Shown one piece after another: positions 3,736-18,066 of a stretch of 50,082 nt of DNA. The position numbers and the translations under genes were made by a program. Location: contig JAXGOY010000006.1 in the NCBI GenBank assembly GCA_040767225.1, positions 1-50,082 on the forward strand. Direction: 5' to 3'. The notes beneath the pieces are model-generated. The model was not told the origin of the DNA and searched no databases. It saw nothing but the letters and a program-made list of their open reading frames with translations. How positions within the stretch are numbered: position 1 is the first letter of the stretch; every line of letters begins with the position of its first letter. The DNA comes from Candidatus Dojkabacteria bacterium. Its GTDB lineage: Bacteria > Patescibacteriota > Dojkabacteria > SC72.

Positions 3736-4971
3736 ATGCAAAAGAAAAATAATAAGATACTTCCTCTTTTAATTGTTATTTTGCTTCTTTCTGCTGTTTT
3801 AGTATTCCTAGTTATTAAATTAAATGGAGTTGATACTGGTGATACTAATGAACCAGATGAGGTAGAAACAATGTCTGGGGATTTTGATACTGATCTATTT
3901 AAAGCATCCTTTAGTGCTTCTAAGAATAAAAATGTAGTTGTTTCTCCTTTTAGTGTAAAGATGGCACTATCTATGGCAGCACAAGGAGCTAATGGGAAAA
4001 CTTTAGAAGAAATGAATAAAGTTATTGGTTTAGATGAGACATCTAATGAGTATTTTAGAAGATTAATAGAGGATGCAGCAAAAGATGGGGATATAACATT
4101 GAATATTGCAAATTCTGTATGGTTAAGACAAGGCTTGCAATTTAATCCAGCATATATGGACATTTTGGATAGCTATTATATGGCTCAAGCTTCTACATTA
4201 GATTTTGCTGAACCATCTTCAAAAGATACTATAAATAAGTGGGTTAGTGAAAAAACTAACGGTAAGATTGAAGAAATTGTAGATGAAATTAAGCCTTTAG
4301 ATATCGCATTTTTAATTAATGCAATATATTTTAATGCTAATTGGAGTACTCCATTTGAGCAAGGTCTTACAAGTAAAAAGGATTTTACACTTTTAGATGG
4401 TTCAAAAGTAAAAGCTGATTTAATGAGTAAAACAGCACATCTTTTGTATCAGGAAAACAATGAATTCCAAGCTGTAGAGCTCCCATATGGTGAAAATGAA
4501 AGATATGTGATGAGGGTATATCTTCCTAAAGAAGATGTAAAGTTTGACAAGTTTGTTAAGGGTATTGATAAAGAGAGTTTACAGCAGTGGGGTGGGGACT
4601 TCGGCTCAATGAAAGGTGTTCTAGAACTTCCTAAGTTTAAGACTGAATACTCAAATAGTATGAAGGACATATTAATCAGTATGGGTATTAAGGAGGCCTT
4701 TAACTCTAATAGTGCTGACTTCTCTAAGATGGTTACTGTTGAAGGACAAAATGTATATATTAGTGAGGTAATGCATAAGACATATATAGATGTAAATGAG
4801 AAAGGTACAGAAGCTGCAGCTGCTACATCTATTGAAATGTCAGCAACAAGTGCTCCTCAACCTGAAGAGATGTTCGAGATGATAGTTGACAGGCCTTTTG
4901 TATTTACAATTGATGATAAAGAGAGTGGAGAGACACTTTTCATTGGTGCTATAATTAATCCATTACAATAG
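3736..4971 (+). CDS. Serpin family protease inhibitor with N-terminal signal or membrane anchor
   Basis: Serpin motifs seen are SPFSVKMALSMAAQGANGKTLEEM, NAIYFNANW, the hinge EKGTEAAAATS and the C-terminal DRPFVFTI. The N-terminus ILPLLIVILLLSAVLVFLVI is hydrophobic. Confidence 0.85.
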   Translation: MQKKNNKILPLLIVILLLSAVLVFLVIKLNGVDTGDTNEPDEVETMSGDFDTDLFKASFSASKNKNVVVSPFSVKMALSMAAQGANGKTLEEMNKVIGLDETSNEYFRRLIEDAAKDGDITLNIANSVWLRQGLQFNPAYMDILDSYYMAQASTLDFAEPSSKDTINKWVSEKTNGKIEEIVDEIKPLDIAFLINAIYFNANWSTPFEQGLTSKKDFTLLDGSKVKADLMSKTAHLLYQENNEFQAVELPYGENERYVMRVYLPKEDVKFDKFVKGIDKESLQQWGGDFGSMKGVLELPKFKTEYSNSMKDILISMGIKEAFNSNSADFSKMVTVEGQNVYISEVMHKTYIDVNEKGTEAAAATSIEMSATSAPQPEEMFEMIVDRPFVFTIDDKESGETLFIGAIINPLQ

Positions 4972-5062
4972 TAGGTTTAATATATTTAAACAGTTGTGGT
5001 AATGTTTCACTCTTGTGTCAAACATTGTATTAATTATATATTTTAGAATATAATTAGTTATT

Positions 5063-7501
5063 ATGAAGAAAGAGTATAACCCAAAAGAATTTGAGAAAAA
5101 ATGGCAGGATAAATGGTTTGAAAGTGGTATATACGAAGCAAAAGATTTTGATAAAAGTAAGCCTAAGTATTATCTTTTAACTGAATTCCCATATCCATCT
5201 GGTCCTGGAATGCATATTGGGCATGCAAGAAACTATTCAATGATGGATGCAGTTGCAAGACTTAAAAGGATGAAGGGCTTTAATGTGATGTATCCAATAG
5301 GATGGGATGCATTTGGTCTTCCTACTGAAAACTATGCTATTAAAGTAAAAAGACCTCCACAGGAAATTACTAATGAGAATATTTCAAACTTTAAGAAACA
5401 GCTTAAAATGCTTGGTATATCATTTGATTGGAGCAGGGAGATAAACACTTCAGATCCGTCATATTATAAATGGACACAATGGATATTCTTAAAGCTTTTT
5501 GAAAAGGGACTTGCATACAAAAAGGAGATGCCTATTAACTGGTGTCCAAAATGCAAGATGGGTTGTGCAAATGAGGAGGTGATTAATTCTGTTCATGAGA
5601 GATGTGGCACAGTTGTTGAAAAAAGGAATTTAAATCAATGGGTGCTAAAGATTACAGAGTATGCAGATAGACTTGATAAAGATCTTGATTTAGTTGACTA
5701 TCCAGAGTCTGTTAAGGCTCTTCAAAGAAATTGGATAGGAAGAAAGAGCTGGTATGATATTAAATATAAGGTGGAGGGAAGTGATATTGTATTAACCGTA
5801 TCTACAACAAGACCTGATACTCAGTTTGGTTCTACATTTGTTGTTGTTGCTCCTGATAGTGAGGCATTAAAGCAGCTTATGTCTGTTATCCCTAAGGAAA
5901 AAATTGATGAGGTTAAGAAATATATTAATAGAAGTATGAGCAAAAGTGATGAGGAAAGAGAGAATAAAGATTCCGAAAAGAGTGGTGTGTTTACAGGACT
6001 TTACTGTGTAAATAGCATTACTAACAAAAGATTGCCAATATGGGTTGCAGACTTTGTATTGTCAACAGTTGGCAGTGGTGCAGTAGTTGGTGTTCCTGCT
6101 CATGATGAAAGAGACTTCCAGTTTGCTCAAAAGTATGGTCTTCCTGTTATTAGAGTTATTGAAGGAGAGAATGGCGATAGATCACCAATTGATACTTTGG
6201 ATAAGGTGTATACTGGTGAAGGAATTGTTTTTAATTCGGGCTTTTTAGATGGTCTTAGCACTCAAGAGGCTAGAGTGAAAGTAGGTGAGTTTATTAAAGA
6301 AAAAGAGATTGGAGATATGGTTGTAAGGTATCATCTTCATGATTGGATATTTTCTAGACAGCATTACTGGGGTGAACCAATTCCAATCATCCATTGTCCT
6401 AAATGCGGAATGGTTCCTGTTCCTGAAAGTGAACTTCCTGTTAAATTGCCTGAGGTAAAAAATTATGAGCCGACAGGTACAGGGCAGTCTCCTCTTGCAG
6501 TTATTCCTGAGTGGGTAAATGTTAAATGTCCAAAATGTGGAGGGGATGCAAAAAGAGAAACCGATACAATGCCTAATTGGGCAGGTTCAAGCTGGTACTA
6601 TCTGCGATATTGTGATCCAAAAAATGAAAAAGAGTTTGTGTCAAGGCAGCTTAGCGATTACTGGATGCCTGTGGATCATTACGAGGGTGGGCAAGAGCAT
6701 ATTACTTTGCATCTTCTTTATTCTAGATTCTGGCATAAGGTGCTGTATGACCTTGGGCTTGTTAGAGATATTGAACCTTACAAAGCAAGAAGTATCCATG
6801 GTGTAGTACTTGGAGAGGGTGGTAGCAAAATGTCAAAGTCTTTGGGCAATGTTGTTAATCCAGACACTCTTGTATCGGAGTATGGTGTAGATATTACTAA
6901 GGCATATCTTATGTTTATGGGTCCATATGAGGGAAATGTTCAGTGGAGTACAAGAACAATTCAAGGTGTTAGAAGGTTTGTTTCTAAGTATTATGTATTT
7001 TTAAATAGAGCATATGAGAGTAGGGTTGAAGAAAGCAGTAGGAGTGTAAAAGCAGCTGTTGAGAGATTGGTAGATAAAATTGAGAATGATATTTTAGATT
7101 TTAAGTTTAATACTGCAGTTGCTGCTCTTATGGAATTTTATAACTCATTTTCTAAAGAGAAATTTGATAACAAAGACCTAGAGAAATTAGTAATTGCTTG
7201 TGCACCAATACTTCCTCATATTTCAGAAGAAATATGGTGTAATACTATGGGGAAGAAATATTCAGTTCATACTCAGAAATGGCCAGAAATAGATAAGGAG
7301 CTTTTAGAAGATGAAAGAATAGAGATTCCTGTGCAGATAAATGGGAAGGTTAGGGGAAGGGTATCTGTATCAGAGAGTGATACACAGGAGCAGATAAGAG
7401 AAATAATCCTTTCTTCAAATACTCTAGGCCCTCTTTTATCAGGTAAACAAATTAAAAAATTTATTTATATTCCTCAAAGGATAGTAAGTATAGTTTTGTA
7501 A
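5063..7501 (+). CDS. leuS: Leucyl-tRNA synthetase
   Basis: Class I signatures HIGH (MHIGHARNY) and KMSKS are present, with the editing-domain motif TTRPDT and LeuS-type Zn-finger Cys pairs. Confidence 0.95.
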   Translation: MKKEYNPKEFEKKWQDKWFESGIYEAKDFDKSKPKYYLLTEFPYPSGPGMHIGHARNYSMMDAVARLKRMKGFNVMYPIGWDAFGLPTENYAIKVKRPPQEITNENISNFKKQLKMLGISFDWSREINTSDPSYYKWTQWIFLKLFEKGLAYKKEMPINWCPKCKMGCANEEVINSVHERCGTVVEKRNLNQWVLKITEYADRLDKDLDLVDYPESVKALQRNWIGRKSWYDIKYKVEGSDIVLTVSTTRPDTQFGSTFVVVAPDSEALKQLMSVIPKEKIDEVKKYINRSMSKSDEERENKDSEKSGVFTGLYCVNSITNKRLPIWVADFVLSTVGSGAVVGVPAHDERDFQFAQKYGLPVIRVIEGENGDRSPIDTLDKVYTGEGIVFNSGFLDGLSTQEARVKVGEFIKEKEIGDMVVRYHLHDWIFSRQHYWGEPIPIIHCPKCGMVPVPESELPVKLPEVKNYEPTGTGQSPLAVIPEWVNVKCPKCGGDAKRETDTMPNWAGSSWYYLRYCDPKNEKEFVSRQLSDYWMPVDHYEGGQEHITLHLLYSRFWHKVLYDLGLVRDIEPYKARSIHGVVLGEGGSKMSKSLGNVVNPDTLVSEYGVDITKAYLMFMGPYEGNVQWSTRTIQGVRRFVSKYYVFLNRAYESRVEESSRSVKAAVERLVDKIENDILDFKFNTAVAALMEFYNSFSKEKFDNKDLEKLVIACAPILPHISEEIWCNTMGKKYSVHTQKWPEIDKELLEDERIEIPVQINGKVRGRVSVSESDTQEQIREIILSSNTLGPLLSGKQIKKFIYIPQRIVSIVL

Positions 7502-7525
7502 GGGGTAAATATAGTCAAAAGTCAT

Positions 7526-7554
7526 TTGACAGGTGTATACATTTCTACTATTAT
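7526..7554 (+). promoter_or_regulatory. Candidate promoter of the giant-protein operon
   Basis: TTGACA at 7526-7531, a 17-nt spacer, and TATTAT at 7549-7554. Confidence 0.45.
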
Positions 7555-7619
7555 TATACTACAGATTTTAAGTACTTAAAAATATTGTTAATCCAAGATA
7601 AAAGTACTATCTGTTAGGT

Positions 7620-10600
7620 ATGAAAAAAATAAACTGCCCAAATTTAGCAAAAAACTTGTTCATTTTGCTGATTTTATCCTTAGTTTTTGCTGTATTTTTT
7701 AGAGGTTCTTTGTATGCCCTTTCGTCTGATAAAATTAACTTACAGGGTAAGATAGTAAGAAATGATACAGGCCATGAGGGTATGAATGTAATACCAGGTT
7801 CTCCTGCATGTGTTATTAATGGAGCAGGCAATGATACATGTGATTTTAGAGTATCTTACTATACGGCAATAACTGGTGGTACGCTTCTTTTGACAGAGGA
7901 TTTTGTTAATGTTGAGATTGGTCAGTTTGATGGTGTTTTTGAGCTTTCTTTGGGAAGCGGGACTATTACAACAACAGCGCAGTGCAGAGATGGTGCATGT
8001 AATTCTCCTTCCGAAGTTATATCTGAGTATGGTGATGTTTACATTGAGTTAAAATTTGCTCCTGATGGTATTAATCTTACAGAAACTTTTACAAGGATGC
8101 CTCTTGAGGCATCTCCATATGCAATATTTTCAAAGTTTGCAGAAGGGGCACATGATGCATTTAAGCTAAGTACTTCAATTAGTAATGGTTCATTGGAGAA
8201 TCCTTCTGCAGGTATGATTTATTTTGATACAGGTTCTTCTCAGCTTAAGGTTTACAATGGTGCAGAGTGGCAGGCATTGAGTGCGGGTAGTGCTTCATGT
8301 CTTTGGACTGATGCTGGTACATATTCATATTTAACTTCCACTACAGATGATCTTGTTCTTGGGGGGAGTACTGTTAATACTGGGAGATTTGTTTTTGATA
8401 TGGATGCAGGTAGCGGCAGTTATTTTGATGTGTTTAATGATGATCATTCAAATAAACTGTTTACTATTTTAGGCAGTGGAAATGTTGGTATTGGGACAGC
8501 AACTCCAGGAGCTAAATTGGAGGTAGGTGGTAGTGCTTCTACAATAACTAATTCAACAGGGAATTTAACAATATCTACGGGAGGAGGCAATGGGAATATA
8601 TTACTTATGCCTAATGGAACAGGTAATGTTGGTATCGGTACCACTAACCCTGATAGTCGTATGGAAATTGTTGCCCCTGCATATGATGGTACTGGACCCT
8701 CATCATTTGAAATTCAAAACTGGCTAAGACTAGTGCAATCGCCAGCCTCTGGACCAAGACCAATACTACAGGTTTATGGTTCATCTACATGGGGTAATGT
8801 TGTTCAATTTGGTAGTTCAATTACCGACTTCATGAGTTTATTAAGATTAAGAGATGAAAATGAAGGTTTGATTTTTGGATCAAACGCTGCTGGTTATGTT
8901 CATAGGCTTAGTACTTCTGGTCAAATTCTTAGCTTAAAGGCAGATAGAGTCAACTATGCCCCAACTTGGCCTATCTCCGTATTTAACATCAATACAGATC
9001 AACAGAATCCAGTTAATAGATTATTTGAAATTAATTTTCCACTTATTGTAAAAACTGCCGAAACAAGCGTCGCATCTTTTCGAGTTAGAGCAATTAATAG
9101 CCAAACTTCAGATCTGTTTCAGTGGCAAGATAACAACAGTAACTCTCTCGGTGTTATCAATATACAGGGTAATGTAGGTATAGGAACAACCTCTCCTACT
9201 CATAAACTAGAATTAGCTACTCATACAACTGCTGCTGGTGGTATAGGTTTTGGAACAGATGTAGAGCTATATCGTTCTGGTGCTAATATTCTTTCTTTAG
9301 CATCAGGTGATAATCTTAATTTAGTGTCTGGTAATGTACAGATAGGGAGTACAACGATATTAACTTCAGGTAGGTTAGTACAAGCAGCTAATGGATCAGC
9401 TTCTTCTCCTGCTTTTAGTTTTTCTGCTGATACAAATACAGGAATGTATGGGACAGGTTCTGATGTTTTAAGATTAGTAACAGCAGGAGCTGATAGAGTA
9501 ACTATAGATGCAAATGGTAATGTAGGTATAGGGACAACATCTCCATTTGCAGGTTTCCATGTTAACGGTATTCCTACATCTCCTAGGAAAATTGGTGCTA
9601 TTATTGGTGAAAGTTACCAAGTTAATGGAGTTGACTTTGCAGTATTGGGAAGTAATCAGGAAGCTGGACTGATTGTTTCTACTAGAAATAGCACTGTAAT
9701 TAATTTGGGTCCTAATTTATTAGGGACATATGGTAGAGTGGGGATTGCAAGTATCGCGGGAGGGCAAAGTGGAAGTGATAGAACAACAGCCGTTGCTGGT
9801 TTAGCTTTTAATACAGGTGGTGGAAATAGTACAGGGGGAATTATTGGTGGGTATTTCCTTTCTTCTACTAGCTCCACATCTGCTTTTACTGGTACAGAAT
9901 ACTTATATGGTGTACAAACCTCTGCTGATAGCAGGGCTGGAATACAAACTGTTTCATCTATTGTATATGGGATTTATAGTACAGCTTATGGAGCTGCTGA
10001 AAGAGGAGATACTACCTATGCAGGTTTTTTTAATGCTACAGGTGGATTAACAAATTATGGGATTTACTCAGCAGGAGGAAATAATTACTTTAATGGTAAT
10101 GTAGGGATAGGAACAACTTCTCCATCTAGTAAATTAGTAGTTAATACAGGAGGATATTCAACAATAAAATTACAATATAATGGGACACCTGTTGTAGATA
10201 TATTTAGTAATGTATCTTCTAACATATTTATTGGTCTTGATTCAGGATCTGCAATAACCTCTGGAACAGGAAATGTAGCATTAGGTGATAATGCATTATC
10301 TGCTACTACTATTGGAACAAGTAATACGGCAGTAGGGTATTTTGCATTAGATTCTAATGTTGCAAAGCAGGGAAGTACTGCAATAGGGTATCAGGCAATG
10401 GCGTATGCAGATAATACTACTACACAGGGACTCTCATATAATACTGCAGTAGGTTATCAGGCATTAGTAGGTAGTGCTACACCTTCCTCCAATACAGGAA
10501 TGTACAATACGGCAATAGGTCATCAGTCAATGACTACAAACACAACTGGATCATATAACTCTGCTCTTGGTGTTAATACTTTAATTAATAATACTATTGG

Positions 10601-13600
10601 TCAGTATAATGTAGCTGTAGGATACGGAGCACTGTTTACTAATGTAGCTAAGAATGCTTCTATTGCAATAGGCTATGAAGCTATGAGATATGCTGATAAT
10701 ACAACTACAACAGGTACAAGCGGGAATATAGCGGTAGGATATCAGGCATTAAAGGGCAGTACTACAGCTTCTAATAATACAGGAACAAATAATATTGCAA
10801 TGGGGTATCAATCAATGTATGGGAATACATCAGGATATGATAATGTCATGATAGGATCGTATGCTGGAAATGCTAATACAACTGGTATGCAGAATGTTGC
10901 AGTTGGAAGAGATGCTTTTAAATCAAATGTTGCAAAAAGTAATAATGTAGCAATAGGATATGGAGCTATGCTTTATGCATATAATTCTGCATCTGCAGGT
11001 AATTCATATAATACAGCACTTCGTTCGTATGCACTAAGAGGCATTACTACTGCTTCAAATAACTCTGTGACATATAATACTTCTATAGGAGGTCAATCTG
11101 GATATTCGATGACTTCAGGATCAAATAATGCTTTACTTGGGTATTATACTGGTTATGCTATTACTACTGGATCTAATAATAGTTTGTTTGGGTACAGTGC
11201 TGGTAGTAATTTAACAACGGGGAGTAATAATATAATTATTGGAGCTAATATTAATGCTGATTCTGCTACTGGTTCTAATCAGTTAAATATTGGTGGTGCA
11301 ATTAAAGGAGATTTAAGCACAGGGGATGTAAATATAACTCGTAATCTGGGTATTAATGGTGTTGCATACACTTGGCCTGGTTCAACTAATCCATATCCTT
11401 CTGCTACTATTAGTATATTAAATAATAATGGAAGCGGAGGATTATCATGGAGTACTTTTGCAGATTTGGGTCTTGTGTCTGGTACTGGTTCTGCAGGGCA
11501 GGTTTCATATTGGAGTGGTACAAATTCTATAACAGGGAGTGATAGTTTCTGGTGGGATTCAACAAATAACAGATTAGGGATTGGTACTAATACTCCTCAG
11601 GCTTCTATTGATATAGCGGGTGCTACCTCTACTATATCTAATGCTAGTGGGGATATTACAATTAGTCCTGCTTCTTTAATTTTATCGATTAATGGGAGAG
11701 TATATCAAACAGGTTTAGGTTATAGTACATATTTTGGACAATATGCAGGTAGAGTAGATGATCTAAGTGATAGGTATAATACTGGTATTGGGTATTCTTC
11801 ATTATATAATAATAGTACAGGGACAAAGAACGCAGCACTGGGATATTATTCGCTATATAGTAATACAGGGAGTTATAATACAGCAGTAGGGAGTAATGCA
11901 CTTCGTACAAATACAAGTGCATCATATAATACTGCAGTAGGGTATTATTCATTATATACTAATAGTACAGGGACATATAATACAGCCTTAGGATATTATT
12001 CATTATATAGTAATACAGGGAGTTATAACTCTTCTTTAGGAAGTTATTCTCTTTATTCTAATAGTTCAGGTACTAATAATACATCATTAGGATATTATTC
12101 TCTTTATTCAAATACAACAGGAAATTATAATGTAGCATTAGGATATCAAGCAGGTAGATATCAAGCTGATGGTAGTACAGCTCTTACAGATCCTGAGAAT
12201 AGTATATATATTGGATACAATGCTAAAGGTAAGGATAATAATGATAATAATTCAATAGTAATAGGATATAATGCAGTAGGATTAGGAGCTAATACAGTAG
12301 TATTGGGTAATGACAGTATAGTAACTACGGCATTAAAAGGTAATGTAGGTATTGGAACAACAAGCCCGGGATCAAAACTAGAAGTTGCAGGCGTTATGGC
12401 TGCTACTGGTATTAATGGTTTTATTTCTTCACCATATCAAATAGTAGCTCCCAAAGGATTAACAGGTATGGGCACAGGTGCCTTGATCTCGGTTGGAACT
12501 ACTGCAACAGGAACAAATCCAAGGAGTATAGCTGTTGATCCCAGTGGTCGTTTTGTCTATGTGACAAACTTTGGATCAAACAATGTTCAAGCCTACAGTA
12601 TCAACCAATCTACAGGTGCCTTGATCTCGGTTGGAACTACTGCAACAGGAACAAATCCAAGGAGTATAGCTGTTGATCCCAGTGGTCGTTTTGTCTATGT
12701 GACAAACTTTGGATCAAACAATGTTCAAGCCTACAGTATCAACCAATCTACAGGTGCCTTGATCTCGGTTGGAACTACTGCAACAGGAACAAATCCAAGG
12801 AGTATAGCTGTTGATCCCAGTGGTCGTTTTGTCTATGTGACAAACTTTGGATCAAACAATGTTCAAGCCTACAGTATCAACCAATCTACAGGTGCCTTGA
12901 TCTCGGTTGGAACTACTGCAACAGGAACAAATCCAAGGAGTATAGCTGTTGATCCCAGTGGTCGTTTTGTCTATGTGACAAACTTTGGATCAAACAATGT
13001 TCAAGCCTACAGTATCAACCAATCTACAGGTGCCTTGATCTCGGTTGGAACTACTGCAACAGGAACAAATCCAAGGAGTATAGCTGTTGATCCCAGTGGT
13101 CGTTTTGTCTATGTGACAAACTTTGGATCAAACAATGTTCAAGCCTACAGTATCAACCAATCTACAGGTGCCTTGATCTCGGTTGGAACTACTGCAACAG
13201 GAACAAATCCAAGGAGTATAGCTGTTGATCCCAGTGGTCGTTTTGTCTATGTGACAAACTTTGGATCAAACAATGTTCAAGCCTACAGTATCAACCAATC
13301 TACAGGTGCCTTGATCTCGGTTGGAACTACTGCAACAGGAACAAATCCGTTCGGTGTAGTTGTTGATCCCAGTGGTCGTTTTATCTATGTGATAAACTAT
13401 GAATTAAACAATGTTCAGGCCTACACTATTAATAATTTCTCCGCTGGCTCTGCCAACTTTGCGGGAGGTGTAGGAGCGATAGAAGAAATTAAAATTACAT
13501 CGAAAGAAGAGAATACTGTATTTACTGAAATTAAGACATTCAAAGGTTATGCTAACGAAACTTTTATTTCAATTAATCCATTTACAAAGGATAACACTGT

Positions 13601-15236
13601 GGGATCGGTACTTCGTATCTTTAGAAATGTTAACACAACAGGGGGTGTAGGAATAGATATCTTCAAAGGGGATAATACTCTTTCCGTAAATTCCCACTTG
13701 GGAGCAAATGGAGATACTTTTCTAAATGCAATCGTTGGCAATGTTGGTATTGGATTAACAAACCCTACATACCGCCTTCAATTACCTAATACTGCTAATA
13801 ATGCAGGAAAAGGACAAGCTAATGCATGGGTTACATATTCTGATATATCTTTAAAAGAAAATATACAGAATATAACTGGAGGATTAGATAAAATAATGGC
13901 ATTGAGAGGAGTTACCTTTGATTGGAAAGGACAAGGAGTAGCATCCTCAGGATTTATAGCTCAAGAGGTGGAATTAGTTATCCCTGATTTAGTATCTACA
14001 GATAGTAATGGTATTAAATCTTTGGATTATGGAAGATTTACACCATACTTAGTAGAAGCAATTAAAGAACAACAATTACAAATACAAACAGCATATAACA
14101 GGATTGAACAATTAGAAAATATAAATGAAAATAAAATAATAAGTATTACAACTCCAGGCTGGTATAGAATATCTAAACTAGATACGAATGATGATCATAG
14201 TAATATAAAAATAAATAATACAAGTGTAGGATCATCACAAAATCTAGTATTAAGCATAGACAGTACATTAAATAATCAAAATATTAATATAGTATCTAAT
14301 CTTACAACAGGAGAATATGATATTACTAAAGCAAGAATAAATAATGAGAATGGTATTAAATACTTAGAAATATATATACCAGAAGTAAATGAAAATAAAA
14401 TAAGTGTAAAAATAACTGAAAGTAGTAATTGGATAACTACTGATATTGTACAGATAACAGAAGAAGTTAATAATACACAAGAGTATGCATTAAATGGAAT
14501 ACTATTCGGTATTAGTGATAAATTGGAGGTAGAAGAAGATAATGTAAAGATAGCTGGGGACTTGCTATCACTCTCAGTTAATTCAAGTATAGGAGATAGT
14601 GCTAATAGATGGAATGATATATATGCAAAAGGAACAATAAGATTGGGAAGTGGTGCTGATGGAGAGGGAGCAATAAGATTTAATGTACAGACAAAAACTT
14701 TAGAGTTTAGTAATAACGGAGTTGAGTGGCTTTCAGTTGGGGATCTATCATCTCAGATGACTATATCTCCTGAGTATGCAGGAGCAATACTATTTGCAGA
14801 TGGAAGTGATAATTCTGGAATAATGACCTCTGATGCAGTAGAGGAAAGTGGTTCATTTAAGAACTATTATGAATGGGTATCCACTAAAGATACACCACAG
14901 GATTACGATATTCTTGTAAGAATTACTCTGCCTGCAGACTTCCTTGGCTGGAAGGAAGATGCAATATACTTAGACTTTATGACAGAAAACTCTGTAAGTA
15001 CTGATAATAACAGTGTAAACCTCTCCCTTATTGGTAATAGTGGTACTGATGTACAAATCACTGGGGGTATTAGCAAAATAGCTGGAGTATGGGAGAGAAT
15101 GAGTATTAAGGGAGCAGATATTACTCAATGCAATAGTGCAGGAGGAACATGTACACTTCGTATTTCCTTAACTTCAAGCATGGAGTACTTTACAAGAGTA
15201 GGAGATATAACTCTAAATTACAATAGATCTCTGTAA
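7620..15236 (+). CDS. Giant (2538 aa) secreted or surface protein, modular and tail-fibre/adhesin-like
   Basis: It has an N-terminal signal or anchor. The module-boundary motif GNVGIGTTSPxxKLEV recurs about 8 times. There are long Ser/Thr/Asn/Gly/Tyr-rich short repeats (xNTAxGYxAL), a 7-blade YVTN beta-propeller, a Peptidase_S74-like intramolecular chaperone domain, and a further C-terminal region of about 370 aa. Confidence 0.85.
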   Translation: MKKINCPNLAKNLFILLILSLVFAVFFRGSLYALSSDKINLQGKIVRNDTGHEGMNVIPGSPACVINGAGNDTCDFRVSYYTAITGGTLLLTEDFVNVEIGQFDGVFELSLGSGTITTTAQCRDGACNSPSEVISEYGDVYIELKFAPDGINLTETFTRMPLEASPYAIFSKFAEGAHDAFKLSTSISNGSLENPSAGMIYFDTGSSQLKVYNGAEWQALSAGSASCLWTDAGTYSYLTSTTDDLVLGGSTVNTGRFVFDMDAGSGSYFDVFNDDHSNKLFTILGSGNVGIGTATPGAKLEVGGSASTITNSTGNLTISTGGGNGNILLMPNGTGNVGIGTTNPDSRMEIVAPAYDGTGPSSFEIQNWLRLVQSPASGPRPILQVYGSSTWGNVVQFGSSITDFMSLLRLRDENEGLIFGSNAAGYVHRLSTSGQILSLKADRVNYAPTWPISVFNINTDQQNPVNRLFEINFPLIVKTAETSVASFRVRAINSQTSDLFQWQDNNSNSLGVINIQGNVGIGTTSPTHKLELATHTTAAGGIGFGTDVELYRSGANILSLASGDNLNLVSGNVQIGSTTILTSGRLVQAANGSASSPAFSFSADTNTGMYGTGSDVLRLVTAGADRVTIDANGNVGIGTTSPFAGFHVNGIPTSPRKIGAIIGESYQVNGVDFAVLGSNQEAGLIVSTRNSTVINLGPNLLGTYGRVGIASIAGGQSGSDRTTAVAGLAFNTGGGNSTGGIIGGYFLSSTSSTSAFTGTEYLYGVQTSADSRAGIQTVSSIVYGIYSTAYGAAERGDTTYAGFFNATGGLTNYGIYSAGGNNYFNGNVGIGTTSPSSKLVVNTGGYSTIKLQYNGTPVVDIFSNVSSNIFIGLDSGSAITSGTGNVALGDNALSATTIGTSNTAVGYFALDSNVAKQGSTAIGYQAMAYADNTTTQGLSYNTAVGYQALVGSATPSSNTGMYNTAIGHQSMTTNTTGSYNSALGVNTLINNTIGQYNVAVGYGALFTNVAKNASIAIGYEAMRYADNTTTTGTSGNIAVGYQALKGSTTASNNTGTNNIAMGYQSMYGNTSGYDNVMIGSYAGNANTTGMQNVAVGRDAFKSNVAKSNNVAIGYGAMLYAYNSASAGNSYNTALRSYALRGITTASNNSVTYNTSIGGQSGYSMTSGSNNALLGYYTGYAITTGSNNSLFGYSAGSNLTTGSNNIIIGANINADSATGSNQLNIGGAIKGDLSTGDVNITRNLGINGVAYTWPGSTNPYPSATISILNNNGSGGLSWSTFADLGLVSGTGSAGQVSYWSGTNSITGSDSFWWDSTNNRLGIGTNTPQASIDIAGATSTISNASGDITISPASLILSINGRVYQTGLGYSTYFGQYAGRVDDLSDRYNTGIGYSSLYNNSTGTKNAALGYYSLYSNTGSYNTAVGSNALRTNTSASYNTAVGYYSLYTNSTGTYNTALGYYSLYSNTGSYNSSLGSYSLYSNSSGTNNTSLGYYSLYSNTTGNYNVALGYQAGRYQADGSTALTDPENSIYIGYNAKGKDNNDNNSIVIGYNAVGLGANTVVLGNDSIVTTALKGNVGIGTTSPGSKLEVAGVMAATGINGFISSPYQIVAPKGLTGMGTGALISVGTTATGTNPRSIAVDPSGRFVYVTNFGSNNVQAYSINQSTGALISVGTTATGTNPRSIAVDPSGRFVYVTNFGSNNVQAYSINQSTGALISVGTTATGTNPRSIAVDPSGRFVYVTNFGSNNVQAYSINQSTGALISVGTTATGTNPRSIAVDPSGRFVYVTNFGSNNVQAYSINQSTGALISVGTTATGTNPRSIAVDPSGRFVYVTNFGSNNVQAYSINQSTGALISVGTTATGTNPRSIAVDPSGRFVYVTNFGSNNVQAYSINQSTGALISVGTTATGTNPFGVVVDPSGRFIYVINYELNNVQAYTINNFSAGSANFAGGVGAIEEIKITSKEENTVFTEIKTFKGYANETFISINPFTKDNTVGSVLRIFRNVNTTGGVGIDIFKGDNTLSVNSHLGANGDTFLNAIVGNVGIGLTNPTYRLQLPNTANNAGKGQANAWVTYSDISLKENIQNITGGLDKIMALRGVTFDWKGQGVASSGFIAQEVELVIPDLVSTDSNGIKSLDYGRFTPYLVEAIKEQQLQIQTAYNRIEQLENINENKIISITTPGWYRISKLDTNDDHSNIKINNTSVGSSQNLVLSIDSTLNNQNINIVSNLTTGEYDITKARINNENGIKYLEIYIPEVNENKISVKITESSNWITTDIVQITEEVNNTQEYALNGILFGISDKLEVEEDNVKIAGDLLSLSVNSSIGDSANRWNDIYAKGTIRLGSGADGEGAIRFNVQTKTLEFSNNGVEWLSVGDLSSQMTISPEYAGAILFADGSDNSGIMTSDAVEESGSFKNYYEWVSTKDTPQDYDILVRITLPADFLGWKEDAIYLDFMTENSVSTDNNSVNLSLIGNSGTDVQITGGISKIAGVWERMSIKGADITQCNSAGGTCTLRISLTSSMEYFTRVGDITLNYNRSL
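10230..12320 (+). repeat. Degenerate short coding repeats (about 14-15 aa, NTAxGYxAL/YSLYSN type), in two blocks of about 10230-11300 and 11780-12320
   Basis: The translated sequence shows periodic motifs such as YNTAVGYQAL, NIAVGYQAL, YNTAVGYYSLYTN and YNTALGYYSLYSN. Near-identical 40-nt segments occur around 11840-11880 and 11990-12030. They resemble the beta-helical head repeats of trimeric adhesins and tail fibres. Confidence 0.5.
12477..13442 (+). repeat. Seven tandem 138-bp (46-aa) YVTN beta-propeller blade repeats; the first six (12477-13304) are nucleotide-identical
   Basis: The unit GGTGCCTTGATCTCGG...CAACCAATCTACA recurs with a period of exactly 138 nt (starts 12477, 12615, 12753 and so on). 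It encodes GALISVGTTATGTNPRSIAVDPSGRFVYVTNFGSNNVQAYSINQST. The seventh copy (13305-13442) diverges after about 40 nt. Confidence 0.9.
13830..14130 (+). other. Peptidase_S74-like intramolecular chaperone auto-processing domain, located internally in the giant protein
   Basis: The sequence ...WVTYSDISLKENIQNITGGLDKIMALRGVTFDWK...GFIAQEVELVIPDLV...LDYGRFTPYLVEAIKEQQLQIQ matches the SDxxxK(x)NI ... GxIAQEV ... LxxAIKELxxxI pattern of phage tailspike and endosialidase C-terminal chaperone domains. Confidence 0.7.
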
Positions 15237-15237
15237 T

Positions 15238-18066
15238 ATGAAAAAAGAGAAAGAGAATGGTAAAACAAACAGGAGTGTTGCTAGGCATATACTGCATATC
15301 TTTGGTTTAATAGTATGTGCACTTTGTATATATATTCTTGTTATTTCTTTCTCAAAAAAAGAAAATGATAGTATAGTAAGAGCTGATAGTAATACATATT
15401 TTAGAAATGAAAATCCTAATTTTAATGTAGAGTTTATAAATGGGCAGTATATTAAATTTGAAACAGTATCTTCATATGTAAATCCCATAGAGCAAAAAGA
15501 GCCTACTGTATGGGAGAAGATAAAGGGTAAATTGCATATTAATCAAACAAAGAAAGGGGTACAGATATCACTTGTTGAAGTATCATATGACTCTGTGTTA
15601 GAGGAAATGAGTGGGAATAATGTAGGGGAGAGGGAGTTAAATAAAAGCATTAAGCTTGCAAAGATAGGCAGAGAACTTGATAGTGAGAGTGAAGTACCAA
15701 AAGATACTGTAATATCTAAGAATATATATGATGGAGTTGATATTCAGTATCAAATAATAAAGGGGAAAGGTCTTAAAGAAGAGATTGTTTTAAATGAGAT
15801 ACCTCAATATACAACTGAATGTGGCAAGGGAGAGTGTGTACTGCCTGTTAATAGATTTGTTTTTGAAATTGAAGTAGACGATGGCTTAACTATTAAAAAG
15901 AGTATTAGTGCAACTGATAAATATCCTAATGGAGTTGTATATATTGTTGATGGAAAGGGGAATTACTATGCCCACTTTCTTCCTGAATATGCAACTGATG
16001 CTGTTGGTATTAAAACAAGTAATGTTAAAGCTAGTATAGTAAAAAATGAAGATAAATATATATATGAGATAGTTTTAGACTCAAAGTGGCTGCTTGATAA
16101 AGATAGGGTGTTTCCAATAAAGATAGATCCAAGTATTGTTCATGATACACAGTTTGTGTTTGAGCAAGGGCAGTTTGATAGAGTTAAACTTAATGAGGTT
16201 ATGAATATACAGCTTGATAAGGCTTTGTCAGGGCAGTATACATCGCCTTCTGTTACTGTTGGAAGCAATGCTGTGGTTAAGGGTATTGAGTGGCAAAGTT
16301 TTGGTCAGGCAACTGAGGATAAGCAGGCTCCTTTTTCAAGATTAGATCTTGTAGTAGAAAACAACTTCGATAATGAGGGCTCTTTAGGGCTTGAGCAGGG
16401 AGAGAGCAGGCAGTTTACTGTAAACACTGATTCATCTGGATATGTAACTGTACAGTTTTGGTCTTACAAAAGGAGAATGTCTGAGGATAGTGAACTGTTT
16501 TCATCTAATTTAGGAAAACTCATAATTGAGAATGATAAATATGTATTTATTGATAGTAATAATATGTCCTATAATACCGAAATAGAAGTAGAGTATAACA
16601 GGTGGCAGTATATTACTATTGTCTTTGGTATAACAAACTCTAATGTAACAGTATATATTGATAGTAAAGAGTTTTCTGCTGATATGTCATACGGTTCTCA
16701 GAATAATTTAGGGAGTATACAACTTTTTGGAAGCGGGTATTTTGATGTTTTAAGAGTGTATGAAAGAATGCTTGCAAGTAATGAGGTTTTAAGTGATTCT
16801 GGATATTCTGATATATATTTTGAATATATGACAAGTAATGATAATATATCCTGGAGTAATTGGATATCAAAGTCACAGTATCCTATATCCTTAGCTTTTG
16901 AGAATGGGAATATGGATATAGTAGTAGATAGTGTTGATACTTCTAAGTACAATTTACTTTCACTTAAATTTCTTGCAAAAGAGGAAGGATATATAACTAT
17001 GGGTGGAAGTAAATTTAGTAATGGAATAGTTGATCAAGATATTCACAGCCTAGTAGATGCAGAAGGACAATTGGATAATACTGAGCAGATAAAGTATATT
17101 GATTTTGTATTTAAGCCCTCTAGTTTGCAGGATTCATGTCTACTTAGTGTTGGGGATGTGAATATTAAAGTACTGCAAACAGGAAAGGTAATAGTTTTGT
17201 ATGATGGTGAAAGCAACGAGTTGGCAGATTTATACATACCTCAAAGGAATAATTATCTTTCTATTTCTTTTTTAGACGATAAAACAGAAATATATTTAAA
17301 CGGCTGGCTTTCATTTAGTGGTGAGCCATATGTGTTAAATGCTAATGAGTACAAAATTGGTTTAGGATGTAGTGATATGCAGAATGCATTTGACGGTGAG
17401 ATTGAAAATGTAAGATACTCAGCTACTGCCCAAGATGAAGATGATATTTTAGAGTATCATACAATTGAAGAGAGAAAATATCCGCTTAAACCTATATTTA
17501 GAGCTACTTTGCAGAATAACAGTCAGATATTAAATGCTCAAAGCACCTCTTTTTCAATTACACAGCAGGCCTTTGGTGCTGATAATTATGTTGTAACTCT
17601 TAACAAAGGGGATACTATTGTTGTTTCGCAAGATGAGTATACAGCTTCTGGTGTTGTGAGCTTTGTTGATAATGATACAGGGCTTGTAACTGTAAATGAG
17701 TGGGATAGCAGCAGTACATTTCCTAATGAGGGGTTTAGTACATCTGCAGAGGTTCTTAAATGGCAAGAAGAATATATACCAATAGTGTTAAATAGCAGTT
17801 TAAATATACAGTACGGTGGTGACCTACAAATTAAGGATATGAGCTTAATATCTGCATTTGATAGTGGGGAGAGTATTAATATACAAGAAGGTAGCAAGTA
17901 TGTTAAATATAGGCTCATATTTATATCGAAATATCCTGATATCTCTGCATCTATCTCTAGTGTAACAATTAATATTGAAGAAAGTGGTCCACAGATGGAG
18001 CAGATAATGAGACATGGCAAGTGGTTTAATGAGAGTGGCAAACAGCCGTACTGGTGGGCTCAATAA
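15238..18066 (+). CDS. Large membrane-anchored protein with two LamG/concanavalin-A-like lectin domains
   Basis: The ATG lies 1 nt after the giant gene's TAA (TAATATG). There is an N-terminal TM segment (ILHIFGLIVCALCIYILVI). Two motifs are typical of Laminin_G_3-type domains: ...FDVLRVYERMLASNEV... and ...FDGEIENVRYSATAQDEDDILEY. Confidence 0.6.
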   Translation: MKKEKENGKTNRSVARHILHIFGLIVCALCIYILVISFSKKENDSIVRADSNTYFRNENPNFNVEFINGQYIKFETVSSYVNPIEQKEPTVWEKIKGKLHINQTKKGVQISLVEVSYDSVLEEMSGNNVGERELNKSIKLAKIGRELDSESEVPKDTVISKNIYDGVDIQYQIIKGKGLKEEIVLNEIPQYTTECGKGECVLPVNRFVFEIEVDDGLTIKKSISATDKYPNGVVYIVDGKGNYYAHFLPEYATDAVGIKTSNVKASIVKNEDKYIYEIVLDSKWLLDKDRVFPIKIDPSIVHDTQFVFEQGQFDRVKLNEVMNIQLDKALSGQYTSPSVTVGSNAVVKGIEWQSFGQATEDKQAPFSRLDLVVENNFDNEGSLGLEQGESRQFTVNTDSSGYVTVQFWSYKRRMSEDSELFSSNLGKLIIENDKYVFIDSNNMSYNTEIEVEYNRWQYITIVFGITNSNVTVYIDSKEFSADMSYGSQNNLGSIQLFGSGYFDVLRVYERMLASNEVLSDSGYSDIYFEYMTSNDNISWSNWISKSQYPISLAFENGNMDIVVDSVDTSKYNLLSLKFLAKEEGYITMGGSKFSNGIVDQDIHSLVDAEGQLDNTEQIKYIDFVFKPSSLQDSCLLSVGDVNIKVLQTGKVIVLYDGESNELADLYIPQRNNYLSISFLDDKTEIYLNGWLSFSGEPYVLNANEYKIGLGCSDMQNAFDGEIENVRYSATAQDEDDILEYHTIEERKYPLKPIFRATLQNNSQILNAQSTSFSITQQAFGADNYVVTLNKGDTIVVSQDEYTASGVVSFVDNDTGLVTVNEWDSSSTFPNEGFSTSAEVLKWQEEYIPIVLNSSLNIQYGGDLQIKDMSLISAFDSGESINIQEGSKYVKYRLIFISKYPDISASISSVTINIEESGPQMEQIMRHGKWFNESGKQPYWWAQ

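Follow-up and report, generated by a model that had tools for sequence, protein, structure and literature searches.

Pereira & Lupas (2022; PMC9218822) surveyed about 10,000 'highly repetitive' beta-propellers, two Lactonase-like families included, a propeller being counted as highly repetitive if at least two consecutive blades share a median blade-to-blade identity of >60%. Blades that are identical in nucleotide sequence are treated there as an assembly problem. A propeller that falls under this definition is encoded by Candidatus Dojkabacteria bacterium (GenBank assembly GCA_040767225.1) within an open reading frame (ORF) of 2538 amino acids (aa) on contig JAXGOY010000006.1. The entire contig, 50,082 nucleotides (nt) read on the forward strand, is referred to here as the window, and positions are those of the window unless another contig is named. 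Six of the seven blades are identical to the last nucleotide. We think it probable that this is a genuine, very recently homogenised seven-bladed propeller cassette of the Lactonase/YVTN type, set within the exchangeable middle region of a giant fibre on the cell surface.

The highly repetitive propellers already described, including WRAP of Nostoc punctiforme (Npun_R6612; PMC9218822; Afanasieva et al. 2019, PMC6805158), resemble the propeller in the window in that the blades are near-identical or identical, also in nucleotides, the amplification unit is one blade, and one edge element is different and is conserved between homologues. Lactonase-like families (PF10282) are among the lineages listed in the survey. 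However, in the window the identity is absolute across six blades. The propeller there does not form a terminal domain but lies as a cassette inside a 2538-aa Patescibacteria fibre, and the older part retained is the C-terminal part of the last blade, whereas theirs is the first strand. The array is an extreme yet recognisable case of the known re-making of propellers from a single blade (Pereira & Lupas 2022), and it involves no new principle.

Propellers of similar fold are known from other settings. The YVTN propeller of a Methanosarcina mazei surface-layer (S-layer) protein (1L0Q) is also seven-bladed and also part of an extracellular surface protein; it was found by Foldseek with an E-value of 7e-21 and 33% identity, the highest among the top structural matches, and the window's domain matches the YVTN repeat model TIGR02276. 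It differs in that its blades are diverged, PKD domains follow it in the S-layer protein, and there is no fibre or S74 setting. The 6-phosphogluconolactonase (6PGL) YbhE/Pgl (1RI6, 6NAU) shares the Pfam family (PF10282) and the fold, but the window's domain misses the equivalog cut-offs for this enzyme, is only about 22% identical to it and has an extracellular, modular setting. Phage tail fibres and tailspikes with an S74 domain (endosialidase K1F type, T5 L-shaped fibre type) share with the window's protein the Peptidase_S74 domain, matches to PHROG fibre and spike families, and a specificity module, here a putative one, just upstream of the chaperone; the cassette is also found in a genuine phage. 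Unlike the phage genes, the gene in the window is located on a chromosome and shows synteny throughout a bacterial genus, with leuS on one side and a cyclophilin/comEA/comEC block on the other; about 410 conserved residues follow its S74 domain. Fibres of the S74 kind are trimers that release the chaperone autocatalytically, and the window's protein is a putative member of this kind.

The tandem array

When the plus strand of the window was compared with itself, every one of 737 successive positions matched the position 138 bp further on (w[i]==w[i+138]), giving a mismatch-free tract of 875 bp (12474..13348), or 6.34 units. The tract contains six 138-bp units with 0 mismatches, and their register can be set at 12474..13301 or, equally, at 12477-13304. 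A diverged seventh unit (13302..13439) has 20 mismatches, every one of them beyond 13348, and its initial 47 nt belong to the repeat. The 138-bp segments that flank the array are unrelated to it on either side (93-97 mismatches). Tandem Repeats Finder (TRF) reported a period of 138, 6.9 copies, 98% matches and a score of 1814. The array lies in frame within the ORF at 7620..15236 on the plus strand (residues 1619-1941), and each unit is translated as TGALISVGTTATGTNPRSIAVDPSGRFVYVTNFGSNNVQAYSINQS, a blade of 46 aa. An initial annotation of the window, made from the letters and an ORF list, had described six perfect copies at 12477-13304 with a diverged seventh and one 46-aa blade per copy; the self-comparison and the translations agree with it on both counts.

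Among the seven blades, 15 of the 21 pairs are 100% identical, and blade 7 matches the unit at 34 of 46 residues (74%), for an overall mean of 0.93. No further occurrence of the 138-bp unit was found elsewhere in the 664,569-bp genome. An array of this kind cannot be a product of chance. Purifying selection was also considered as the source of the blade identity and was ruled out, as the synonymous sites are identical as well.

Fold and family of the domain

The cassette that contains the array (12432..13448 on the plus strand; aa 1605-1943, 339 aa, from the entry PYQIVAP to the exit NNFSAG) was delimited from boundaries shared with relatives and from the predicted fold. It matches the Pfam family PF10282 (Lactonase, 7-bladed beta-propeller) with 220.1 bits against a gathering threshold of 21.7 (E 6.4e-65). 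The excised domain also matches TIGR02276 with 57.7 bits against a cut-off of 27.85; scored inside the whole 2538-aa protein, the same model gives 26.6, slightly below the cut-off. The assignment to the Lactonase/YVTN-type propellers is supported by these matches, as the initial annotation had supposed in naming a YVTN beta-propeller.

An AlphaFold2 model of aa 1600-1960, built with an alignment of 11 homologous cassettes, has a predicted local distance difference test score (pLDDT) of 90.6, a predicted template modelling score (pTM) of 0.88 and 28 strands, or seven times four. The best matches found with Foldseek in the PDB (6nau, 1ri6 and 1l0q; E about 5e-21, template modelling scores 0.71-0.77) are all seven-bladed. 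The seven blades are therefore predicted to close into a ring, and the closed seven-blade fold that had been assumed earlier stands as a prediction. In the model, each 46-aa unit opens with the outer strand D, which completes the preceding blade, and then supplies strands A to C of the blade that follows. The last blade would accordingly be completed by strand D from unit 1, a one-strand 'velcro' closure.

The names of the best Pfam and NCBIfam models and the 6PGL-like proteins among the top structural matches could be taken to mean that the domain is an enzyme, either a 6-phosphogluconolactonase or another lactonase, and not a binding module. However, both 6-phosphogluconolactonase equivalogs were missed by a wide gap (NF008258, 206-211 bits vs 370; NF050136, 67-81 bits vs 500), and identity to the solved 6PGLs (6nau and 1ri6) is about 22% compared with 33% to the archaeal S-layer YVTN propeller 1l0q. 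The setting, an extracellular fibre with an S74 domain and similarity to phage structural proteins, also argues against an enzyme, and six identical blades make an asymmetric active site impossible. The lactonase/6PGL identity was rejected on the equivalog cut-offs. An enzymatic role of the propeller is unlikely, and we give the reading of the domain as such an enzyme hardly any credence.

Compared with the unit, 16 codons of blade 7 are changed, 4 of them synonymously and 12 non-synonymously. The changes fall at positions 17-20 (RSIA to FGVV) and 33-35 (FGS to YEL), at a few core positions and in the exit motif (45-46). In the blade family as a whole, the positions of highest entropy are 15, 17 and 33-36, and the differences between the unit and blade 7 are concentrated at the high-entropy positions (17-18 and 33-35) and in the exit motif. 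Placed on the AlphaFold2 strands, the high-entropy positions map to the D-A and B-C loops. By convention, these loops make up the top face of a propeller. Because the variable positions lie in these loops, homogenisation would have put one set of putative specificity residues on six blades.

Relatives of the cassette

The ends of the cassette are distinctive, with the entry SSPYQIVAP...GTGAL (SSPYQxVxP) and the exit INNFSAG. The same ends, 344-354 aa apart, are present in at least six other long proteins (P0082, P0084, P0085, P0093, P0110 and P0225), and over the seven cassettes, that of the window included, the length is 339-354 aa. Several relatives (P0072, P0074, P0082 and P0112) also have the S74 domain. 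P0084 is on a 58-kb contig with phage-like gene content.

A scan of IMG/VR recovered 46 loci that encode the cassette, with up to 67% identity over its full length. Viral nature was verified for one of these records only, L059 (UViG_3300045995_000467), in which a PHROG scan found TerL, a portal, a head protease and a major head protein; a search of six IMG/VR records for Terminase_6N gave no match. The cassette protein of this phage (L059:5929-7371, 481 aa) is 55% identical, includes the entry motif and has seven blades. Its gene is between the portal and head-morphogenesis genes, that is in the head module and not among tail genes. In another record, L044 (UViG_3300027736_000041), the locus at 4843-8124 holds three successive arrays of 6.9 copies with period 138 and 80-82% nt matches, corresponding to three seven-bladed propellers in tandem in one protein, and L050 has an array of 13.5 copies. 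Searches of a library of 1.84 billion representatives, which contains 53,373 members of the family at E<1e-3, and of an index of 5.8 billion proteins both found nothing closer than 66-67%.

Homogenisation within the family

Blades were compared across 18 cassettes of seven blades each. The mean blade identity inside a cassette is 0.43-0.83 in the relatives and 0.93 in the cassette of the window. Comparison between cassettes gives an identity of 0.506 for blades in matching positions and 0.494 for those in non-matching ones, so a shared position does not make blades more alike. Blades thus group by protein and not by position, which is the pattern used by Pereira & Lupas (2022) to recognise independent amplification. 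The search for an ancestral source blade gave a corresponding result, as the unit is about equally similar to each of blades 1-7 in the closest cassettes (0.57-0.72), with no positional signal, and this flat profile is itself evidence for concerted evolution. In the 46 IMG/VR loci, TRF found many arrays with a period of 138-144 (or the doubled period, 276-288), about 6.4-6.9 blade copies and 70-88% nt matches, and none of the arrays at these loci was near 98-100% matches. Among 245 relatives, only 4 others have an identical blade pair; one of the 4, P0011, has three near-identical consecutive blades.

Since positional orthology is missing while identity within cassettes is high, the family evolves by repeated re-amplification or homogenisation with the number of blades kept at seven, and the array in the window is the youngest extreme of this family continuum. 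The array is best read as the product of recent amplification or concerted evolution. A single 46-aa blade would have replaced blades 1-6 together with the initial third of blade 7, either through tandem amplification or through unequal recombination or gene conversion among blades that were already similar, or both. The C-terminal two thirds of blade 7, exit motif included, would retain the older sequence. One phase of duplication does not account for a perfect tract of 6.34 units, and unequal exchange or conversion would fit better. A recombination mechanism is the likely source of the homogenisation, and the genome encodes recA.

The giant gene and its surroundings

The ORF at 7620..15236 (plus strand; ORF list, Pfam and PHROG) begins with an N-terminal signal or anchor, followed by fibre-like repeat modules, the propeller cassette, the S74 domain and a conserved C-terminal region. 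The motif GNVGIGTTxP, which appears to mark junctions, occurs eight times (aa 288, 336, 518, 634, 827, 1318, 1575 and 2041), and the cassette sits in the module bounded by the last two. The motif at aa 1575 (NVGIGTTSP, 12342..12368) is the final one of the seven that precede the cassette; that at aa 2041 (NVGIGLTNP, 13740..13766) ends its module. Peptidase_S74, the intramolecular chaperone of endosialidases and tail fibres, was identified at aa 2074-2125 (13839..13994; Pfam, 51.9 bits vs a cut-off of 22), about 130 aa downstream of the propeller end. Matches to PHROG tail spike, tail fibre and virion structural families extend along aa 899-2172, and phrog_5481 (tail fibre) and phrog_33119 (long tail fibre distal subunit) span aa 1841-2172. 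The S74 domain is internal, and the approximately 410 residues C-terminal of it, for which no family match was found, are the best-conserved part of the protein across orthologues (51-92%).

The genome amounts to 664,569 bp, split over 19 contigs, with a completeness of 90.8%, and the window is its contig C16. The giant gene is chromosomal, and the named relatives are metagenome-assembled genomes of Candidatus Dojkabacteria or Patescibacteria. Upstream are rho, an M23/LysM peptidase, a serpin and leuS; downstream are the gene for a 942-aa protein, then cyclophilin, comEA, comEC and argS. The 942-aa ORF (15238..18066, plus strand) starts 1 nt past the stop of the giant ORF and matches no family in Pfam, NCBIfam or PHROG; two other genomes (G003 and G002) keep it downstream of their giant-gene orthologues. 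Contigs of the bin overlap in two places, C3:12324-19412 with C18:963-8111 (92%, 7.2 kb) and C7:1-5588 with C17:4804-10369 (96%, 5.6 kb), and C11 (4.8 kb) has a GC content of 0.49 compared with about 0.32 elsewhere in the bin. The genome contains a second young tandem array, at C1:94709-97852 (minus-strand coding), which has a 342-bp period and about nine copies that are 98-99% identical in nt, with small indels. Its unit is a 114-aa DUF11/CARDB-like repeat, 'VTKTPSVSVVPETGGNVTFTFTVKNTS...', in another surface-type protein.

Origin of the cassette

Syntenic orthologues of the giant protein in the genus are 2372-2618 aa long. Relative to the orthologue in the same-genus genome G003, the protein is a mosaic: the N-terminal part (aa 1-352, 7620..8675) is 88% identical and the C-terminal part (aa 2021-2538, 13680..15233) is 92% identical (51-66% to the other orthologues), while the central region of about 1670 aa cannot be aligned. 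The breakpoints with G003 are within about 20 aa of the junction motifs at aa 336 and aa 2041. None of ten orthologous loci has a propeller match (0/10), and the cassette is missing from 58 of 60 related genomes, the remaining two having only distant propeller matches (25-41% identity). The cassette is a lineage-specific module.

The GC content at third codon positions (GC3) of the cassette, with repeats counted once, is 0.316, whereas the remainder of the ORF has 0.166 (p 0.001); from the junction at 13740 onward the value is back at 0.17. However, the cassette is indistinguishable in GC3 from the other genes of the window (0.246, p 0.10), and composition is no more than suggestive of a foreign origin.

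These observations bear on whether the cassette came in with its blades homogenised beforehand, donated by a phage or by another Patescibacteria fibre gene through module exchange at the junction motifs. Its absence from all orthologues and nearly all relatives, the swap of the central 1670 aa with breakpoints near GNVGIGTTxP motifs, and the step in GC3 across the ORF would be accounted for, and the closest relatives (65-67%) are on IMG/VR contigs, with one verified phage carrying a cassette. Against this, no donor above 67% identity was found in any collection searched, the GC3 does not set the cassette apart from the other genes of the window, and a perfect array is unstable and hence young wherever it was formed. 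We regard import in a finished state as rather unlikely. The initial annotation had suggested a recent in situ amplification or concerted evolution. A recent, concerted process agrees with the identical synonymous sites and the missing positional orthology, but instead of forming 'in situ' the cassette may have arrived with its blades homogenised, given that every orthologue is without it and its GC3 is unlike the rest of the ORF.

Putative role of the propeller

In S74 fibres, the specificity module directly precedes the chaperone. As the propeller ends shortly before the S74 domain, we read it as the probable distal ligand- or receptor-binding head of the surface fibre. Homogenisation would then give six identical copies of a putative binding pocket, and with them a reset, multivalent specificity.

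A more elaborate proposal is that blade homogenisation reprograms the fibre tip. A blade with a new pocket would sweep through the propeller by RecA-driven unequal exchange and so turn an asymmetric binding face, in a single step, into a six-fold multivalent lectin. The array would afterwards act as a copy-number-variable contingency switch, and many sweeps of this kind, shared between phages and Patescibacteria, would have left the missing positional orthology as their trace. Taken as a whole, we consider this proposal distinctly unlikely. The switch may also be proposed separately, with RecA-dependent gain and loss of in-frame 138-bp units alternating between a closing propeller and a non-closing or altered one. 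A perfect in-frame tandem repeat of 875 bp is an ideal substrate for such a contingency locus, recA is present, the protein is a surface fibre, and the same genome has the second young in-frame array in a surface-type protein. All relatives, however, hold approximately seven blades, and the number looks selected rather than used for switching. A contingency locus is, in our view, very unlikely.

Copy number and reliability of the assembly

Several points weigh against a genuine, recently homogenised propeller in a binding role. The array is known from one assembly alone, the cluster of the whole protein has 1 member, on 1 contig, and neither the metagenome contig nor the genome contig collection contains an exact match to a 32-mer of the unit. 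A search sized for fragment ORFs gave a best identity of 58% and no near-identical fragments. The bin is a mixture of strains, with two related populations seen in overlapping contigs that are 92-96% identical. When a graph assembler passes through a loop n times, its output necessarily holds n identical copies, which means that '6' and '100%' do not count as independent observations and could partly be a matter of representation. As to the role, binding is argued from position and family context only, and about 410 aa after the S74 domain are atypical of S74 fibres.

The true locus may accordingly have fewer, more or slightly different copies, with the six perfect units made by a de Bruijn graph loop that was run through as often as coverage suggested, or by consensus polishing that evened out near-identical copies. 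The 875-bp perfect tract exceeds the length of short reads, SPAdes-style NODE names are found on contigs of the relatives, the bin mixes strains and the sequence has been seen once only; PMC9218822 warns of exactly this assembly problem for nucleotide-identical blades. On the other side, the cassette as assembled has precisely the number of blades, seven, and the length found in all relatives, with a fold predicted to be closed, and an arbitrary loop count would rarely arrive at the seven blades of the family. The same assembly kept differences of 1-2% among the copies of the 3.1-kb array with the 342-bp period. Moreover, neither collapse nor polishing can make blades that are 60-85% alike identical, and a very recent amplification is implied even if the assembly is wrong in detail. 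We consider an artefact of this kind unlikely. For the number itself, the sole evidence is indirect, namely the length of the cassette (339 aa vs 344-354 aa in seven-bladed relatives), and a count of 6+1 would follow, likewise indirectly, from the seven blades that are fixed in the family.

Significance

If the assembly is right, the genuine, recently homogenised propeller favoured here is among the cleanest natural snapshots of a propeller just after re-amplification, with zero substitutions in 828 bp and with an older last blade retained that marks what was overwritten. Its setting would be a phage-type cassette, probably for binding, within the exchangeable middle of a giant fibre at the surface of an ultra-small Patescibacteria cell. 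The family context indicates that such resets recur and that the number of blades nevertheless stays at seven. The domain would offer a natural test case for the folding and binding of fully symmetric propellers, and for the renewal of surface specificity by episymbionts and their phages.

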